A DNA stretch of 64,000 nucleotides from Alphaproteobacteria bacterium (GCA_045630985.1 JAZQTW010000015.1:10706-74705); one strand, 5' to 3'. Shown: positions 4,439-53,288, numbered from the stretch's first letter. A program made the numbers and translations. The notes: generated by a model not told the origin, from the sequence alone.

Positions 4439-5494
4439 TTAAAATCCTAAATCTTCCATAAAACTAAATTGGTTGTTATCATTTTTAAATTTACTAACTC
4501 CAAGATATTTACATCCTTGTTCTGATAAAACACGTCCACGCGGTGTTCTTTGTAAAAATCCTAGTTTTAGTAAATATGGTTCAATTACTTCTTCTATTGT
4601 ATCTCGTTCTTCTGAAAGAGCTGCTGCCAGTGTATCAGCTCCAACAGGACCACCACCATAGTTTTTAGCGATACAATTTAGGTAACGGCGGTCAAATTCA
4701 TCTAAACCATAAGGGTCTACATCTAATAGGCTTAGTGCTTTATCTGCTATTGTAGAATCTATTTGTACGTTACCTGCAACAGCACCGAAGTCCCTTACTC
4801 TTTTTAATAATCTTCCTGCAATACGAGGGGTTCCGCGTGAACGCTTAGCAATTTCCATTGCGCCATCTTGAGATATTGGCATGTTTAATAAATTTGCACC
4901 GCGTAGAACTATTTTTTGTAAGTCTTCATGATTATAAAAATCCATGCGTAGAGGAATACCAAAACGTTCTCTTAGAGGTGTTGAAACAAGACCTGAGCGA
5001 GTTGTTGCACCAACAAGAGTAAAAGGTTGTAAATCTATTTTTACTGAACGAGCAGAAGGTCCTTCACCGATAATTATATCTAATTGAAAGTCTTCCATGG
5101 CAGAATATAAAACTTCTTCTATGGCAGGGTTTAAGCGGTGTATTTCATCTATAAATAAAACATCTTTTGCTTCAAGATTTGTTAATATGGCGGCCAAATC
5201 TCCAGATTTGGTAATCATTGGGGCAGAGGTTGCTTTAAATCCTACACCTAACTCTTTTGAGATAATGTTTGATAGAGTTGTTTTACCTAATCCTGGAGGG
5301 CCATATAAAAGTACGTGGTCTAAAACTTCTCCTCTACTTTTAGCAGATTCTATAAATACTTTTAGATTTTGGCATACTTTATCTTGGCCAACAAATTCAT
5401 CAAGACTAGATGGTCTGAGATTTATAGCAATAGGAGAGTTATTTTCATCTGTTGATAGTATTTGTGAGCTAACTATTCTTTCTTTATTTTCCAT
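4439..5494 (-). CDS. ruvB: Holliday junction branch-migration helicase RuvB
   Basis: [12 protein letters not shown], Walker [10 protein letters not shown], Walker [10 protein letters not shown], sensor and winged-helix regions conserved. Confidence 0.95.
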
Positions 5495-45770: not shown

Positions 45771-47021
45771 TTATCCTTCTTCGGTTTTACTTTCCAATAT
45801 CTTAAAACCATTTGATATTTCCAGTAATGTAGTCAGCGAAAAATCAGATGTTTTTAATTTTCTTATATCGGAGTAAAGCTTCTCATAATCTCTCTGTACC
45901 GTAGAAATCTTTTTTGAAGTTAGTGAACATTTTTCTACAATCTCGCCCAATTGTGCTTCATAAACCTCTCTATCCTGTGCTATTGCTTTTATCCCAACCT
46001 CATGAGATCTTACCACCATATCATCCCACAGTGGCAAAAATTCCGTACGAAGTATAGAATCCCACTTTTTACAATACCTGTCCTGATAAACATCTTTTAA
46101 TCTATCGCACATCAACCTCTGTATTGAAGTTGACATTAAAGACAAGGTGTGTTGGATACTATTCAAAGCATTAGACATATTAACGGCCAATTTTTCTACA
46201 GCTTCAGCAATAGGAACGGTTAGCTCCAAAACATTATCTGTATAAAATACTGGGAATATAGGATTATGAATATACAACTCATGATGACCTGTTTTGGGTT
46301 TTATCCGACCCGTATCAAAAATTTCTGAATCATCTACTCTTTTAATATTAAAAAAATAGAAATCTTCACAATCATAATCCTCACTCAAAATTTTAGCAAT
46401 TTTTGAATTTGCTTCCTCGTGTGTATCAAAAATAAAACAAGCAAAATAACTACCATAAGGACCATGCATACAATGATTGTTTTTATCAATCATATTATGT
46501 AACAGACTATAAGGATCATAAAGATTTTGTGCAGTAATTCCCATGCTCTTCATGTAGTCTTTTAAGCGGTAGCTACAACACTCTCGTCCTCTGCAATAGT
46601 GATATTTTAAAACCTTGGGTTGTCCGTATATACCATAATAGATTTGCTCATTAAGTTTGAAAAATGAAGGAAATTCTTCAAAAGATTCAACCATACATTT
46701 ATCATGCTCAACAAAACACTCATTAAGAATATCAAAATAAATGTCTTTCCAGATAATTTTCTCTCTCAAATCTTTCATGGTGACACGAACATATTCACTC
46801 TTGCTCTTCTCACCATAATTAACTTGTTTAGGCAACTTATATACTCTGAATTTATATACCATGTTATAGCCATGATTATTTTGCATAAGTATTGGCTGCT
46901 TGAGATTTTTATACCACAGTTTACCAAAAACAAAATGGTACATATTCCACCCATCTTTTTTGCATAAAGAATTTATGAATCTGTACATAAATTCCGGATT
47001 AAGATATTCTTCTCTAACCAT
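45771..47021 (-). CDS. hypothetical protein, 416 aa, Cys/His/Tyr-rich N-half, no recognised domain
   Basis: long ORF; no Shine-Dalgarno; conserved ~100-nt upstream leader shared with the 338-aa gene at 53434..54450. Confidence 0.5.
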   Translation of the reverse strand: MVREEYLNPEFMYRFINSLCKKDGWNMYHFVFGKLWYKNLKQPILMQNNHGYNMVYKFRVYKLPKQVNYGEKSKSEYVRVTMKDLREKIIWKDIYFDILNECFVEHDKCMVESFEEFPSFFKLNEQIYYGIYGQPKVLKYHYCRGRECCSYRLKDYMKSMGITAQNLYDPYSLLHNMIDKNNHCMHGPYGSYFACFIFDTHEEANSKIAKILSEDYDCEDFYFFNIKRVDDSEIFDTGRIKPKTGHHELYIHNPIFPVFYTDNVLELTVPIAEAVEKLAVNMSNALNSIQHTLSLMSTSIQRLMCDRLKDVYQDRYCKKWDSILRTEFLPLWDDMVVRSHEVGIKAIAQDREVYEAQLGEIVEKCSLTSKKISTVQRDYEKLYSDIRKLKTSDFSLTTLLEISNGFKILESKTEEG

Positions 47022-47246: not shown

Positions 47247-47379
47247 AACAAAAGCCAACCTCACCATTGTGGATGAGAAGGTTTGCCAACGTTAAAATAA
47301 CACTTTGTAAAATAATAAAAAAATTGCCTTATCAAAAACAAGGTATTTTTTTCTAATTTAGAGTGGGGGAACGCGACCA

Positions 47380-47426
47380 TTGTAAAAAAAAAAGAGGAAG
47401 AATTTTCTTCCTCTTTTTTTATTGTT
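47380..47426. terminator. bidirectional intrinsic terminator
   Basis: A10-GAGGAAGA-att-TTCTTCCTC-T9. Confidence 0.75.
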
Positions 47427-47428
47427 TT

Positions 47429-48064
47429 TTAGAAACCTATTACTTTTTTAGCTGCTTTTAAGTAGTTGGTATTTGGCATTTTATCTATACCTAAAGCTTC
47501 AACAGCGGTTTTCATCTTTGTGTAGTCTTCACTTTCACAACAAGCTGTTTCTACTAAAGCGCCATTCATCCAAACATAAGCATATTCGCAAATTACATCA
47601 TTTACAGAAAATCCATAGCGTTTCTTTTCTACTGTAACTAGAGCTAATTGATGATGGTTGCGTGCAAGCTCACAGAACTCTTCAAAAGAATATTCGTCTT
47701 TATCTAAGTCTAACTCTACTTTGAGGTGAGAAAGAATTGTTGCTAACTCTTCTTTTTTTACAGGGAAATTGAATTTTCCTCTAGGTTGGAAAATTTCATA
47801 TCCTTCTGGTGTTTCGCCAACTTTTGTTTTGATATCTAATAAATCATCGCGCACTTTTACGTTTGCTTCATCAGTCTTTTTAGATAAAATATATGTTTCT
47901 GCAGGCATTACACGTGCTTTATATAATACTGCTTTGCAGTTCCACATATTTTCTTTAACACCTTCTATAATATCTTTACCAAAAACTCTAAATTCGGCGC
48001 GAGGTGTTAATTTGGCAGCTTCGTCTGCTGATTGAGCTACATTTTTTGCAAAAACGTCTGTCAT
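47429..48064 (-). CDS. hypothetical protein, 211 aa (possibly a divergent CYTH-like domain), last gene of patatin-CYTH operon
   Basis: 24-nt gap to upstream CYTH gene; weak CYTH-like strand pattern (EFRVFGKD… VKVRDD… DIKTKVGE…) but lacks ExExK. Confidence 0.5.
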   Translation of the reverse strand: MTDVFAKNVAQSADEAAKLTPRAEFRVFGKDIIEGVKENMWNCKAVLYKARVMPAETYILSKKTDEANVKVRDDLLDIKTKVGETPEGYEIFQPRGKFNFPVKKEELATILSHLKVELDLDKDEYSFEEFCELARNHHQLALVTVEKKRYGFSVNDVICEYAYVWMNGALVETACCESEDYTKMKTAVEALGIDKMPNTNYLKAAKKVIGF

Positions 48065-48088
48065 TTTGTTTCTCCAATTATTTGATGA

Positions 48089-48559
48089 CTAGTTATTCCA
48101 TGTTGTATATGGATTTTTTACTAAGTTAGAGTTGAAGTAACGAGGGTCTCCAGATACTTCTTCGCCAATCCATTCTGGTTTTTCAAATTTTTGGTCTTCG
48201 CTTTGAAGCTCAACTTCTGCAACAATCAAACCTTTGTTAACTCCTAAAAACTCATCAATTTCCCAAACCAATCCGTCTAGAGCAATTTTGTAACGTATTT
48301 TTTCTACAATTGGTTGTTCTGCAAGGTTTGTAAGCATTTCAACACATTCATTGTGTGGAATTTCATATTCAAATTCCATACGAGTTATACCAACTGTTGG
48401 GCCTTTAATTGTCATGAAAGCTTTATCATTTATGGTGCGAATACGAACAGTACGTTCTTTTGCACTATTAAGGTATCCTTGACGATAATGTGTTCCTTGT
48501 GCTAAAGAACGCCAGCTGTCATCAATTACTAAAAATTTACGTTCAATTTCTTTTGACAT
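48089..48559 (-). CDS. CYTH-domain protein (triphosphate tunnel metalloenzyme; class IV adenylyl cyclase / inorganic triphosphatase family)
   Basis: N-terminal EIERKFLV (ExExK signature), acidic strand motifs EFEYEI, EIDEF, VAEVEL. Confidence 0.75.
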   Translation of the reverse strand: MSKEIERKFLVIDDSWRSLAQGTHYRQGYLNSAKERTVRIRTINDKAFMTIKGPTVGITRMEFEYEIPHNECVEMLTNLAEQPIVEKIRYKIALDGLVWEIDEFLGVNKGLIVAEVELQSEDQKFEKPEWIGEEVSGDPRYFNSNLVKNPYTTWNN

Positions 48560-48625
48560 TGTCTTCTCCTTGTAAATAAAACACGCTATTGTTTATATCA
48601 CACTGGGAGGAATAAGCAATATTTT

Positions 48626-49486
48626 TTATTGATTTGTGATTTGTGCTAAAAATTGTTTAACTTTATCTAGCATGTTTGTAGCATCTTGTCGACCTAGTTC
48701 GTACATTTCTTTAACTATATCAAGGTTTGGTTCCATTTTTGAAATATTTATAAATTTACTTGGGCGAATTAAGAGGATTTCTTCTTTTTGAGCTAATTTT
48801 TCTATTTCTTCTATCTCGTTATTGTACATTGTGTGGCGATTAAGTATTGTTTTGATGAAGTTTGGGTATTTTCTATAGATTAAATTTGCTAGCCACTTTG
48901 CCTTAAATGGCTTTTTGCGATATCCTTCAGGACGAGTTGCTATTACTATATTTTTTGTAAAACCTAAGGTTTTTGCGCCTTGTAGAGGTATACTATCGCA
49001 AATGCCTCCGTCTAAATATTTGTTGTTATTTAAATTTACTATTTGAGAGACAAATGGCATAGATGCTGATGCTCGCAAATAATCAATTTCTTTAAACAAG
49101 TCTTTACAGTGGATATATTCGGGCTTACCAGTTTCTATGTTAGATACAACTACGTAAAACTTGGTATTAGAATCCATAAATGTTTTGTTATCAAATGGGT
49201 CTAATTTTTCTGGTAAATCATGGTAGCAAAATTTTGTATCTACAATATTTCCGGTTAAGAGTAGAGAGCGAAAGCTCATAAAACGATAGTCATTTCCGTA
49301 TTTCATGTTATAACGGATGCTACGTTCTTTTTGTTTTGCCACATATGAACAACCATGTATTGCGCCTGCAGAAACGCCAATTACTCCGTCAAAGGTTATT
49401 CCGTTTTCTAAAAAAACATCTAGTACACCTGCGGTGTAGATACCTCTTTTTGCTCCACCTTCTAAAACTAATCCTGTTTTTTGCAT
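48626..49486 (-). CDS. patatin-like phospholipase
   Basis: oxyanion-hole LVLEGGAKRG, nucleophile elbow GVSAG, catalytic DGG (YLDGGICDS). Confidence 0.85.
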   Translation of the reverse strand: MQKTGLVLEGGAKRGIYTAGVLDVFLENGITFDGVIGVSAGAIHGCSYVAKQKERSIRYNMKYGNDYRFMSFRSLLLTGNIVDTKFCYHDLPEKLDPFDNKTFMDSNTKFYVVVSNIETGKPEYIHCKDLFKEIDYLRASASMPFVSQIVNLNNNKYLDGGICDSIPLQGAKTLGFTKNIVIATRPEGYRKKPFKAKWLANLIYRKYPNFIKTILNRHTMYNNEIEEIEKLAQKEEILLIRPSKFINISKMEPNLDIVKEMYELGRQDATNMLDKVKQFLAQITNQ

Positions 49487-49584
49487 ATTATCTATCCTTG
49501 TTTCTGTAAATTATTTGGAAAATTAGAACAAAACCCCAATATGGTCAATATAATAATCTATTTTTTAGTATGTATGTTATAAAT

Positions 49585-49613
49585 TTGACAAAGGGTGTTT
49601 TTTGTGATATACT
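49585..49613 (+). promoter_or_regulatory. sigma70-type promoter, copy 1 of conserved 27-nt core TTTGACAAAGGGTGTTTTTTGTGATAT
   Basis: -35 TTGACA (49585-90), 17-nt spacer, extended -10 TGaTATACT (49608-13). Confidence 0.65.
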
Positions 49614-49639
49614 GTATAAATATTGAAGGAGATAAGGGG

Positions 49640-49726
49640 ATGGAAAATGTATTAAATAATATGTGTAAAAGATTTGAGAATACCTTGAAAGTGGCGGTTT
49701 TCTACACACACACACACACACACACT
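49640..49726 (+). CDS. 28-codon leader ORF (MENVLNNMCKRFENTLKVAVFYTHTHTH*) containing (AC)10
   Basis: AGGAG RBS 8 nt upstream of ATG 49640; TAA immediately after the dinucleotide repeat; located between promoter and terminator. Confidence 0.35.
49704..49723 (+). repeat. (AC)10 dinucleotide microsatellite inside the leader ORF
   Basis: acacacacacacacacacac, only such tract in the window. Confidence 0.95.
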
Positions 49727-49756
49727 AACAAACCCTGCCGAGAAAATTTTTAACTA

Positions 49757-49797
49757 AGACCTCAAAGGTAACGAATTCCTTTGAGGTTTTGTTATTT
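49757..49797 (+). terminator. intrinsic terminator / attenuator 22 nt upstream of the 623-aa gene RBS
   Basis: ACCTCAAAGG-taacgaatt-CCTTTGAGGT (10-bp stem) + TTTTGTTATTT. Confidence 0.75.
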
Positions 49798-49818
49798 AAA
49801 ATATAAGGGAGACAAGAA

Positions 49819-51690
49819 ATGGATGGAGCTTTGTTAAAAGATATTTTTGAGAGGAGTTATGCTAATGAGTTAGTAGAATGTATTCGCTCAAATGGTAATG
49901 TAGATGATTTTATAAAAAATTTAGAAGAAAAACAAAGTGATGAACAACAATCTAAAATATATCAGTTTGTGGAGTATTATAAAAAGGTTTTAGAATATCC
50001 AAGTGATATTTCTAAAGAAGAAATATTGAAATCTGGTCTAAGTGAACAATATATTGAACGACAAATTATGGAAAGTAAATTTCCGGGTGAAGCTTTTAGG
50101 TCTATTAGAAGAATGTATGAGCAATTAGATAGACCGGCAGCTCCAATGGTTGCATTTAGGAGAGAGTATGCGGGGGGAGATATTGTTGAAAAATTAAAAC
50201 AAAAAGGTTTTGATGTTGCTACAGAAGATGATGAGAGGGCTGTTAATACAGATGTTTTTGTTGTAGATAAGCAATCTAGGACAATAAATGCTCCATTTTT
50301 AGCTCCGGATGAAGCATTGAAGGCTAATATAGCTATGATAGATGCTATTTATGAATGTGGATCTGAAGCATATTTATCTAGTCCAAGAACTAGAGAAACA
50401 TTTGCTATTGCAACTCATGAGCCTTTGTCTCAAGAAGAAGGAGTTGGATTAGATTTAGAAATAATAGCTTCTCATTATTCAAAAGATAATTATGAGAGGG
50501 TTATGAATAATTTTTATCAAGAATGTATAGAGGGAGAAGAACCGTACAAGATATTATGCAATTTTATAGATCACATAAAACCAAGGGATTTAGACCTACA
50601 TGATAAAATTATCAAAGAAGGAAAAGAAAGGTTTCCACGTTATTTATCCAGTGATTTATTAAAAGAAATAGAAGAAGAAGCTAGAAAAATTTTAGTAGAG
50701 CATAAAGAGGAGTTTATGCCTTATGTAAAATATGTGTATCAATATATGATGAAAGAAGAAGCATTTGAAAAAGGGATTGATTCGCATATTCCAGATAAGG
50801 AAAATATAGAAATGCTAGAACAAAATAAACCGATAACATCAGTTTTTCATGGAGGGAAAAAAGGTGGATTACCATATTCAATATTTGCTCGTAGGAAGGA
50901 AAAAAATATGATTCATACTTATGCGGCATCTATGATGGATTATGAAGTATATTCGGGAGGGAGTACTTCAAATAATCCTGTTGGGTATGCGGTTGCAGCT
51001 TCCTGTCATAATGCAAGGTCATTTGCGATATCTTTTGGTTTTGTTTATGAATATAAGTCTAGAGGAGAAAATCAGGAGATGTTGCTCTTGGATAGTGGTA
51101 GTAAACCATTTGATGGGGGAAAGTTTGTTGCCCCATACTCTGATGAAACAGCTGTGTATCCGCATCAAAATAAATTAAAAAAAATATATATTGCAACAAA
51201 GAGAGATGGGGTTTTTAGAGTTCTTCCATTAGAGGTAGATGAAGAAGGTAAAGTTAAAGATGCAAGATGGCGAGAATTTGTTGAATTGCATAACCCGGTG
51301 GATGATACATTATCTGGATTTATGGTTGATAGACAGAATAATATGATTGCGGAATATGATAAGTTAGGCAAAGAAAAGATGATGGATAGACGCTTAAGCA
51401 TTGATATTGGTGCAAAAAATATTTCTTTACCAATAAATTCGGAAAATGAAAGTGTAGAAAAAGTTGAAAGTTTATCTGCTGTATCTTCTGTATCAGTAGC
51501 AGAGATGTCTGAGAAGGAGAAGTATGTTTTCTTTAAAGCGCTTAGTAGAGGGGAGAATATGTTTCTTAATAAACATGAAGAAGCACAACAATTGGTTAAA
51601 AATGAGGAACAAACTAAAGTTACTTCTTTACAAAAAACGAAAGATTGTCAAAGAGTGATAGTTAATAGTAGAGATAAGGATAGAGATTAA
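49819..51690 (+). CDS. hypothetical protein, 623 aa, acidic, no recognised domain (candidate secreted effector)
   Basis: AAGGGAG RBS 7 nt upstream; long ORF with coding-like composition. Confidence 0.55.
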   Translation: MDGALLKDIFERSYANELVECIRSNGNVDDFIKNLEEKQSDEQQSKIYQFVEYYKKVLEYPSDISKEEILKSGLSEQYIERQIMESKFPGEAFRSIRRMYEQLDRPAAPMVAFRREYAGGDIVEKLKQKGFDVATEDDERAVNTDVFVVDKQSRTINAPFLAPDEALKANIAMIDAIYECGSEAYLSSPRTRETFAIATHEPLSQEEGVGLDLEIIASHYSKDNYERVMNNFYQECIEGEEPYKILCNFIDHIKPRDLDLHDKIIKEGKERFPRYLSSDLLKEIEEEARKILVEHKEEFMPYVKYVYQYMMKEEAFEKGIDSHIPDKENIEMLEQNKPITSVFHGGKKGGLPYSIFARRKEKNMIHTYAASMMDYEVYSGGSTSNNPVGYAVAASCHNARSFAISFGFVYEYKSRGENQEMLLLDSGSKPFDGGKFVAPYSDETAVYPHQNKLKKIYIATKRDGVFRVLPLEVDEEGKVKDARWREFVELHNPVDDTLSGFMVDRQNNMIAEYDKLGKEKMMDRRLSIDIGAKNISLPINSENESVEKVESLSAVSSVSVAEMSEKEKYVFFKALSRGENMFLNKHEEAQQLVKNEEQTKVTSLQKTKDCQRVIVNSRDKDRD

Positions 51691-51736
51691 TTTTATTTAT
51701 ACAATGTAGATGTTTTATATAAATATATGTATGTGT

Positions 51737-51765
51737 TTGACAAAGGGTGTTTTTTGTGATATGTT
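51737..51765 (+). promoter_or_regulatory. sigma70-type promoter, copy 2 of the conserved 27-nt core
   Basis: -35 TTGACA (51737-42), identical 17-nt spacer AAGGGTGTTTTTTGTGA, -10 TATGTT. Confidence 0.6.
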
Positions 51766-51797
51766 ATACGTATATTGTAAATTAAGGGAGGATTGAT

Positions 51798-52349
51798 ATG
51801 GTAAATGTAGCGCCTATAATTGCGGCGACAGCGGCAATGAATGCAGCATCAGCGGCTTTGAATGCAAAAAGAGTTTTAAATAAAGGTAAAAGAGTTCCAA
51901 CTGAAGAAGAAATAAAGAAAAACCAAGAGTATAAGGATAATGAAAAGGCTTTGAGTGAGGATTATGCAAAAGCTTATAAGAGAGCAAGGGCTAGTGTTGA
52001 TGAGAGTAAGACTGTTGTTGAATCACAAGATAGAATGGAAAAAGTTACTGCATATTATGATGATAAAGGAAATCTTTTAATACGTGAAACAGCATTGACT
52101 TTTATGATTGATGGAGAAACAACAACAGAAATTTATTCTCCTTACTCAGGTAAAAAGTTGTTTAGTAATAGAGTTTATCATAGTCCTGAAGAGGATATTG
52201 AGCATATTACTCATTATGATAGTGAAGGTAATGATGATACTCAGATGTATGCTAAAAAGAAGAAGCTTGAAGCTAAAAGAGATAAAGAAAAAGCAAAGAA
52301 GAGACTTAGAAGGATGAAACTTAATAGAGTCTTTCATAAAGGGAGATAA
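51798..52349 (+). CDS. hypothetical lysine-rich protein, 183 aa
   Basis: AAGGGAGG RBS 6 nt upstream; Ala-rich N-terminus (MVNVAPIIAATAAMNAASAAL), basic C-terminus. Confidence 0.5.
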   Translation: MVNVAPIIAATAAMNAASAALNAKRVLNKGKRVPTEEEIKKNQEYKDNEKALSEDYAKAYKRARASVDESKTVVESQDRMEKVTAYYDDKGNLLIRETALTFMIDGETTTEIYSPYSGKKLFSNRVYHSPEEDIEHITHYDSEGNDDTQMYAKKKKLEAKRDKEKAKKRLRRMKLNRVFHKGR

Positions 52350-52417
52350 AATAAATTGCATATAATGAAAAAACGGCATTTGTTATGCCGTTTTTTCATT
52401 GTGTTGAATTGGAAGAT

Positions 52418-52867
52418 TTATCGCTTTCCATAAACAATGATGTATTGATTATCACCTTTGTCAGCTAAAAGATATCCTACTTTATATCCTAGCTTGAAAG
52501 CGTTTTCACCATGATACCCATAGTTAGTAATCTTCCAACTTGTTGGGGTGTTTATGTATGTATGTACATTAAAACCTATGGAATTAAATTCGTAATATGT
52601 GTTTTTTGAATTTATTCCATAACTTCCGTTTGGAGTTATGTACATATCATGATAATCACCATCCTCTAGATAATTGCTATCGGAATTTTGCATAAATGCA
52701 TATACAAAATCCGCATCTTTTACAGCCTCTACTGAGGGTTGAGCATCACAGTATTCCTTTGTAGAATAGCATTCGCCATCTAAAAGGATGTTACCATCGC
52801 ATACTATTTGTGCGAAGGTAGTTGTACTAGTGAGAACTAGTAGCAAAGAAATAAAAATCTGTTTCAT
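52418..52867 (-). CDS. small secreted protein with signal peptide, Tyr/Asn/Gly-rich
   Basis: MKQIFISLLLVLTSTTTFA|QI signal peptide; 4 Cys near N-terminus. Confidence 0.5.
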   Translation of the reverse strand: MKQIFISLLLVLTSTTTFAQIVCDGNILLDGECYSTKEYCDAQPSVEAVKDADFVYAFMQNSDSNYLEDGDYHDMYITPNGSYGINSKNTYYEFNSIGFNVHTYINTPTSWKITNYGYHGENAFKLGYKVGYLLADKGDNQYIIVYGKR

Positions 52868-52970
52868 AAAAAATAATATTTGGTTATTAGATTTGTTTAT
52901 ATCACATTTTTAAGATTGTTGCAATAGTTTTTTGTACAAAAAAACCACCCAGTAAGGGTGGTGGTGTTAG

Positions 52971-53288
52971 CTATTCTTCTTTAAATGCTTTTATTAGGCT
53001 TGATAAAGCGATAATTAGACCTATAAAGAAGAAAATGCAGAAAATTATTAGAGATGTTGGTGTTGATACCCATGCTAGGTATATTGCAAAAGCTATTATG
53101 TAGTAGATAATAAAGTACATACAGCGCAAAATTATTTGTTTGTACTGGATTACCTCATTGGGAGTTGCTTTTGTAGTACATAGGCGAATGCGCCTTTTTT
53201 CCCATCTTCTAAGGAAATAGATGAAGCATAAGCAAAAAAGTATCAAGCTTATAGCCCATACATACAGAACAATTCTTGTTACTTCCAT
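52971..53288 (-). CDS. small membrane protein (3 TM)
   Basis: hydrophobic segments; weak. Confidence 0.3.
   Translation of the reverse strand: MEVTRIVLYVWAISLILFCLCFIYFLRRWEKRRIRLCTTKATPNEVIQYKQIILRCMYFIIYYIIAFAIYLAWVSTPTSLIIFCIFFFIGLIIALSSLIKAFKEE

Follow-up and report, generated by a model that had tools for sequence, protein, structure and literature searches.

We report that, in a window of 64,000 nucleotides (the whole stretch of DNA that was analysed), a sigma-70-type promoter, a leader ORF with an (AC)11 dinucleotide repeat and an intrinsic terminator precede, in this order, the gene for a 623-aa protein. The parts of this unit, from the promoter to its final terminator, are all located on the + strand. 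Leader, terminator and 623-aa gene make up a strain-specific segment of 2125 bp (49611-51735, as judged by alignment to relatives); downstream of it lies a 183-aa gene (51798-52349), and the divergent neighbour upstream encodes a patatin-like phospholipase (Pfam). Among the other products of the window is an AsmA-like outer-membrane assembly protein, which makes a diderm gut bacterium the probable host.

The promoter occupies positions 49585-49613, with the -35 box TTGACA at 49585-49590, a 17-nt spacer ending in TG and the -10 box TATACT at 49608-49613. It agrees with the consensus at 11 of 12 positions and was the top + strand site in 48000-53000 in the promoter scan, which predicted no promoter-like + strand site in 49614-49818. 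Here the initial annotation, which had described a consensus promoter with TG upstream of the -10 box and no separate promoter after the terminator, is confirmed, and the same applies to the AGGAG Shine-Dalgarno sequence of the leader (49627-49631), located 8 nt before the ATG at 49640. This ATG is the first start codon on the transcript. By frame scripting it opens a leader ORF of 37 codons plus TAA (49640-49753), the predicted product being MENVLNNMCKRFENTLKVAVFYTHTHTHTNKPCRENF, and the stop codon TAA at 49751-49753 ends 1 nt short of the foot of the terminator hairpin. The repeat had been read as (AC)10 and the leader as a 28-codon uORF ending at 49724; the tract is in fact (AC)11 (49704-49725, codons 22-29 of the leader ORF) and, because it is one unit longer, the ORF has 37 codons, 28 being the number that belongs to an allele with ten units.

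The leader ORF is not present in a collection of 15 billion proteins, in which three neighbouring proteins of the same NCBI contig were found, and none of ten leader peptides predicted for 7 to 14 repeat units, with ATG and GTG starts, was found there by exact look-up. A permissive Rfam search (E up to 10) of 48500-52500 gave no match within 49582-49818. At gathering thresholds the whole window and six homologue loci gave tRNAs only and no cis-regulatory family.

The (AC)11 tract is the sole dinucleotide repeat of more than five units in the 64-kb window, and no such repeat was found in approximately 230 kb of related loci. Its length is far above the chance expectation, and it is an oddity in bacterial DNA of 32% GC; no other repeat-type contingency locus was detected within the window. 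Scans of metagenomes using the flanks of the tract with a variable gap, and of metagenomes and viruses using the 26-nt promoter, gave 0 matches each, and in the collections searched the leader together with the 623-aa gene was found in one contig only. Levinson and Gutman are said to have found in 1987 that poly-CA/TG tracts give high-frequency frameshifts in E. coli, and Bayliss et al. reportedly noted in 2004 that mutations in MMR genes lead to higher mutation rates of dinucleotide tracts in H. influenzae, in which dinucleotide tracts drive phase variation.

Folding predicted an intrinsic terminator at 49755-49797, in which a stem of 14 bp closes a loop of 9 nt (49755-49791) and a U-rich tail extends to 49797. 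The hairpin has a predicted ΔG of -18.6 kcal/mol (z = -6.0), and 0 of 200 shuffled sequences were as stable; our consensus terminator scan missed it solely because loops were limited to 8 nt in that scan. Of the terminator annotated initially (a 10-bp stem with a T-run, 49757-49797), the hairpin and the U-rich tail thus stand, and the stem is longer and starts further upstream than had been given. The U-rich tail is separated by 21 nt from the ATG of the 623-aa gene at 49819, and this gap includes the Shine-Dalgarno sequence AAGGGAG (49805-49811, 7 nt before the ATG), which had been correctly annotated together with the 623-codon ORF.

Reading frames past the tract were simulated for n = 6 to 15, and three stop codons are used in turn. 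With n = 7, 10 or 13 the leader is short and ends at TAA 49726-49728, 26 nt before the hairpin foot (predicted OFF). With n = 8, 11 or 14 it ends at TAA 49751-49753, 1 nt upstream of the hairpin (predicted ON at n = 11), and with n = 6, 9 or 12 at TAA 49755-49757, which overlaps the first base of the stem (predicted ON). No frame in the simulated range runs through the hairpin into the 623-aa gene. Several details of the initial annotation therefore change: the (AC)9 stop is at 49755-49757 and not at 49750-49752, the translational coupling by which an (AC)11 leader was said to read through the hairpin into the 623-aa gene does not exist, and the observed allele, taken to leave the terminator free (OFF), is predicted to be ON since its stop abuts the hairpin. 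By our own estimate this layout of frames is statistically weak, AT-rich spacers mostly giving one near and one far stop.

To model the ribosome at each stop, a footprint of -12 to +15 around the P site was blocked in the folds. The hairpin remained intact with the stop at 49726 and was abolished with the stops at 49751 and 49755. Moreover, constrained folding gave the 5' arm of the hairpin no upstream partner before the 3' arm emerges, the 5' arm at this point pairing only with itself (4 bp), and an upstream partner was still lacking when the 3' arm was blocked in the fold. The leader thus has no antiterminator of the trp/his type.

The 623-aa gene extends from 49819 to 51690, its start being backed by N-terminal homology to its closest homologue, P0002, and folding predicted no terminator 3' of it. 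It had been considered an orphan; however, the protein has about 30 unannotated homologues with identities of at most 51% (the nearest 51%), and it is the only member of its own 90% cluster. Most homologues are approximately 1000 aa long with additional N-terminal and C-terminal parts, and their genomes are gut and rumen MAGs, for the most part labelled Alphaproteobacteria. All 47 invariant columns of a 22-sequence alignment, which includes this protein itself, are retained, and the protein therefore looks intact. It matches no family in Pfam, PHROGs, NCBIfam or PADLOC, and a sequence profile search against the PDB gave nothing meaningful. The structural model of its core is confident (pLDDT 77.6), and Foldseek returned no significant structural neighbours for it. 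As a side observation, the weak top Foldseek matches of the core were to pertussis toxin S1, and the invariant residues of the protein include His, Tyr and Glu (H344, Y353/Y368/Y390 and E411); together these give a hint, from a predicted model, of a possible ADP-ribosyltransferase-like domain.

The leader is not a feature of this protein family, as no repeat of at least 12 nt and no leader ORF with a terminator between promoter and gene were found at the homologue loci (16 from genomes and the two closest from metagenomes). The homologous genes have ordinary promoters, and the closest homologue locus has the ordinary order terminator, promoter, ATG. At that locus (L023) a GC-rich stretch of approximately 120 nt (113-235) separates the promoter from the terminator upstream; no Rfam family matches this stretch, and the stability of its fold is unexceptional (z = -0.33). 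Separately, three homologues from different MAGs share a conserved block upstream of the gene, TTGTTAATTTTGT(C/T)TATT..TTATATAAT (L001 ~200-300, L002 ~5090-5170 and L012 ~5160-5240), which points to a promoter or operator conserved within this branch of the family.

The locus was compared with six contigs from other metagenomes (L017-L021 and L024), which were reached via the 90% identity cluster of the patatin-like phospholipase and have about 95% DNA identity to the window. In all six, window positions 47374-49610 join directly onto 51736 and the segment is absent. In the window the segment is bordered by two exact copies of a 27-bp sequence, TTTGACAAAGGGTGTTTTTTGTGATAT, the left one (49584-49610) covering the -35 box with the spacer and half of the -10 box (its first three bases) and the right one (51736-51762) corresponding to the promoter of the 183-aa gene, TTGACA-17-TATGTT. 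The 26-nt core promoter accordingly occurs twice in the window, at 49585 and 51737. The relatives have one copy of the repeat, where the two alignments overlap (e.g. L020 2761-2787), and lack the segment; hence 49611-51735 is a strain-specific indel flanked by 27-bp direct repeats, and the consensus promoter is natively that of the 183-aa gene. The junction cuts the -10 box, which is therefore TATACT on the left and TATGTT on the right, the last three bases (ACT) of the left box being supplied by the segment. What the initial annotation could not see is that this promoter has an exact second copy on the other side of the strain-specific 2.1-kb segment.

The segment has a GC content of 0.321, equal to that of the host. 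Ungapped similarity between the repeat copies extends to 42 nt at 86% identity. Beyond it, the leader start (ATGGAAAATGTA) and the start of the 183-aa gene (ATGGTAAATGTA) align with p ~0.11 locally and p = 0.034 in an end-free global alignment, a score equalled by 0.5% of random genomic 47-mers, and homology of the two starts is thus marginal. Terminal inverted repeats were not found next to the direct repeats. In the single inverted pair related to the ends (I8, 13 of 15 positions) the right arm is set back by 27 nt into the segment, and such pairs are common in this AT-rich DNA. No transposase or integrase was detected, neither as a match in Pfam, PHROG or NCBIfam nor as a DDE or integrase fold among the structural matches. 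An insertion sequence or transposon with target-site duplication was therefore rejected, there being neither abutting inverted repeats nor a transposase or integrase. Elements of the IS1202 group make duplications of ~27 bp, which is a lead only and does not fit this segment. The absence from all six relatives favours gain of the segment in this lineage, the alternative being deletion in the relatives.

At the other end of the aligned region, synteny with the relatives is lost directly left of the poly-A arm (47384-47393) of a bidirectional terminator (A-run, hairpin GAGGAAGAATTTTCTTCCTC, T-run). The length of this arm varies between strains, with 10 bases in the window, 14 in L020 (4977-4990), 9 in L017 (2807-2815) and ~7 in L024 (~4940-4950). 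The relatives lack an equivalent of the 416-aa gene located at 45771-47021 in the window.

In the relatives the 183-aa gene (identified as an ORF) lies directly behind the promoter in the 27-bp repeat. Its protein is hydrophobic and rich in Ala at the N-terminus and highly basic at the C-terminus; it matches no Pfam or NCBIfam family and is 90-98% identical in five of the six relative contigs, the copy in L021 being truncated (82% over residues 1-93). It is not linked to 623-aa homologues in other genomes. An intrinsic terminator predicted by folding at 52364-52400 (ΔG -20.4 kcal/mol, z = -6.3) ends the unit, and as no terminator separates the 623-aa and 183-aa genes the two would be co-transcribed on read-through.

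Taken together, these data are compatible with a candidate slipped-strand, translation-dependent attenuator of the pil1 type (see below) placed before a strain-specific gene, a reading to which we give somewhat less than an even chance. The parts and their order, the frames, the strength of the hairpin and the lack of an internal promoter and of an antiterminator are established features of the locus; translation of the ORF, termination of transcription at the hairpin, a ribosome that keeps up with the polymerase and a useful rate of length change in the tract are inferred. Transcription would start at about 49620 from the left promoter copy, and a ribosome loading at AGGAG and the ATG at 49640 would trail RNA polymerase across (AC)n, so that repeat number sets the reading frame and the frame sets the stop codon. 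With n = 10 or 13 the ribosome would leave at TAA 49726, 26 nt before the hairpin, the hairpin would form and transcription would end at ~49797, leaving the 623-aa gene OFF or low. With n = 11 (the sequenced allele; TAA 49751) and with n = 9 or 12 (TAA 49755) the terminating ribosome would cover the 5' arm to ~49763-49767, no hairpin would form, and the polymerase would continue into the 623-aa and then the 183-aa gene (ON). The notion of a repeat-length attenuator, put forward in the initial annotation, thus survives in its architecture, for which there is a proven analogue in pil1/pil3 (PMC3894217) that the annotation had not named, and not in its frame details or in the state assigned to the sequenced allele. 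The gene under control is a strain-specific accessory gene. Contingency switches usually target accessory genes of this kind. The comparative data lend the repeat switch no support, leader, repeat and terminator being absent from the relatives and from the homologue loci.

The main rival, which we regard as doubtful, is that the leader is a recombination scar without switch function, a remnant of whatever event brought the 623-aa gene to its place between two promoter copies; an inherited terminator would then damp or insulate, the ORF would be fortuitous and the AC tract a neutral expansion by slippage. This would agree with the whole segment being a private indel with sharp 27-bp direct repeats and with a leader conserved nowhere among the relatives, the homologue loci and the collections searched. 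Moreover, ~30 non-repeat open codons are not rare in DNA of 30% GC (roughly 0.1 by our own estimate), and a stop at 49751-49753 abutting a hairpin at 49755 resembles the 3' end of an ordinary gene. A scar does not, however, readily account for a perfect 22-bp dinucleotide repeat, which is very unusual in bacterial DNA, tends to vanish unless maintained, and is unique in the 64 kb and in ~230 kb of related loci, nor for a good Shine-Dalgarno site with correct spacing to an ATG that is the first on the transcript. The 623-aa protein, furthermore, has kept the family-invariant residues and its gene is presumably expressed, yet the sole promoter lies upstream of the terminator. In an unlikely explanation, ~49620-49797 is a stand-alone small RNA with an unstructured CA-rich stretch, or encodes a 37-aa small protein, and the 623-aa gene receives leak-through only. 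A strong promoter, roughly 180 nt and a strong intrinsic terminator are what a typical small-RNA gene consists of, and in the predicted fold the AC tract is unpaired; on the other hand, there is no Rfam family match and no conservation, the leader fold apart from the terminator is not unusually stable (z = -1.45), and the 623-aa gene would be left without a promoter of its own.

There is only a slender chance that the repeat acts without translation of the leader, the length of the 5' UTR influencing RNA structure, stability or processing as for intergenic repeats of Haemophilus influenzae. Repeats in 5' UTRs can indeed work via RNA structure and RNase processing (PMC12721329). In the predicted folds, however, the tract is mostly unpaired and does not interact with the terminator, and a length change of 2 nt, if not read as a frame, would have no obvious consequence in a spacer that lacks structure and lies 30 nt away from the hairpin. 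An assembly chimera, in which the 2.1-kb segment was joined via the shared 27-mer and occurs at this position in no real genome, is very improbable. The exact repeat, the sharp edges and the presence of the segment in one contig only would fit, and 27 is within the range of small k-mers used by assemblers; against this, both junctions would have to be spurious together, assemblers usually finish with k-mers longer than 27, segment and host have equal GC content, and the similarity of the two sides continues in register beyond 27 bp (the 42 nt at 86% identity, and the marginal 5' UTR similarity with p = 0.034). Finally, the initial annotation offered a His/Thr-sensing attenuator as an alternative, the leader peptide having seven alternating Thr and His codons before a terminator. 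This classical mechanism, with a ribosome stalling on ThrHis codons, is effectively refuted: in the absence of antiterminator pairing by the 5' arm, a ribosome stalled on 49706-49726 would leave the terminator unhindered, neither of the two proteins encoded downstream (623 and 183 aa) matches a biosynthetic family in Pfam or NCBIfam, the codon run is simply (AC)n read in frame, and the leader is absent from the close relatives and from all homologue loci.

A bolder extension of the switch, which we consider quite unlikely, is that the segment is a self-contained cassette that entered the genome and duplicated the resident core promoter while bringing its own repeat/terminator switch; it would then be the first pil1-type attenuator outside streptococci and a case of promoter-capturing acquisition. 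An insertion that duplicates the core promoter would account for the 27-bp repeats without a recombinase and, if this is true, an acquired gene comes already under stochastic ON/OFF control. Irrespective of the cassette, if the switch works the leader-peptide/repeat attenuator known from S. gallolyticus would represent a broader design, reinvented with a different repeat in a distant host, probably a Gram-negative uncultured gut bacterium, with a recently gained accessory gene as its target. It would also provide an example of a new gene placed under bet-hedging control, and would make a case for systematic searches for short repeats in small upstream ORFs before terminators; ordinary contingency-locus scans miss such switches because they are targeted at promoters and long coding regions. 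If the switch fails, the locus remains a clear-cut case of a strain-specific gene inserted between duplicated stretches of promoter sequence.

With respect to known systems, the 2.1-kb segment with its 27-bp repeats, of which the relatives have one copy, resembles other indels at short direct repeats, such as att or target-site duplications and repeat-mediated deletions. It differs from these in that there is no integrase or transposase and there are no abutting inverted repeats, and in that the repeated sequence is a core promoter. The leader shares with the trp/his/thr attenuators a leader peptide before an intrinsic terminator and the principle that the position of the ribosome decides termination, whereas here there is no 2:3 antiterminator and no biosynthetic operon, and the signal would be a heritable frame and not tRNA charging. 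Dinucleotide phase variation is also known from the hif locus of H. influenzae, where a (TA)n repeat lies in the promoter spacer. Switches with dinucleotide repeats in promoters or 5' UTRs have in common with the present locus a repeat upstream of the gene and, as proposed here, a heritable and reversible switch at the mRNA level; in contrast to hif-type promoter repeats, the tract here is downstream of the -10 box in a translatable ORF, and the read-out would be the frame (period 3) and not spacing.

The closest counterpart is found in S. gallolyticus, where a 38-aa leader ORF with 22 GCAGA repeats precedes the pil1 operon and is followed by a terminator of -18.7 kcal/mol (Danne et al. 2014, PMC3894217). 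In-frame pil1 alleles have their stop codon 39 bp before the hairpin, and pilus transcription is low, while out-of-frame alleles have longer leaders with a stop within or near the hairpin, such that the ribosome blocks hairpin formation and transcription goes up; this model was proven by mutants of the start codon, the stop codon and the terminator, and pil3 uses the same mechanism, the distance between the short-frame stop and the hairpin being 39 and 33 bp in pil1 and pil3, respectively (PMC3894217). The present locus differs from pil1/pil3 in having an (AC)11 dinucleotide instead of a (GCAGA)13-22 pentanucleotide repeat, in long frames that end at the hairpin foot and not within or beyond the hairpin, in an uncharacterised 623-aa target instead of a pilus operon, in a host that is probably a diderm gut bacterium and not a streptococcus, and in a sequenced allele whose frame is the one predicted to be ON. 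The likeness, which at this locus is known from sequence, covers a promoter, a leader ORF with a Shine-Dalgarno site and a repeat, a terminator and a promoterless gene in the same order, leaders of 38 and 37 aa and hairpins of -18.7 and -18.6 kcal/mol (pil1 and this locus, respectively), a repeat unit inside the leader ORF that is not a multiple of three, and one frame that stops far upstream (26 nt here) with the other two stopping at or in the hairpin. All structural elements of the pil1/pil3 design are thus present at the locus.
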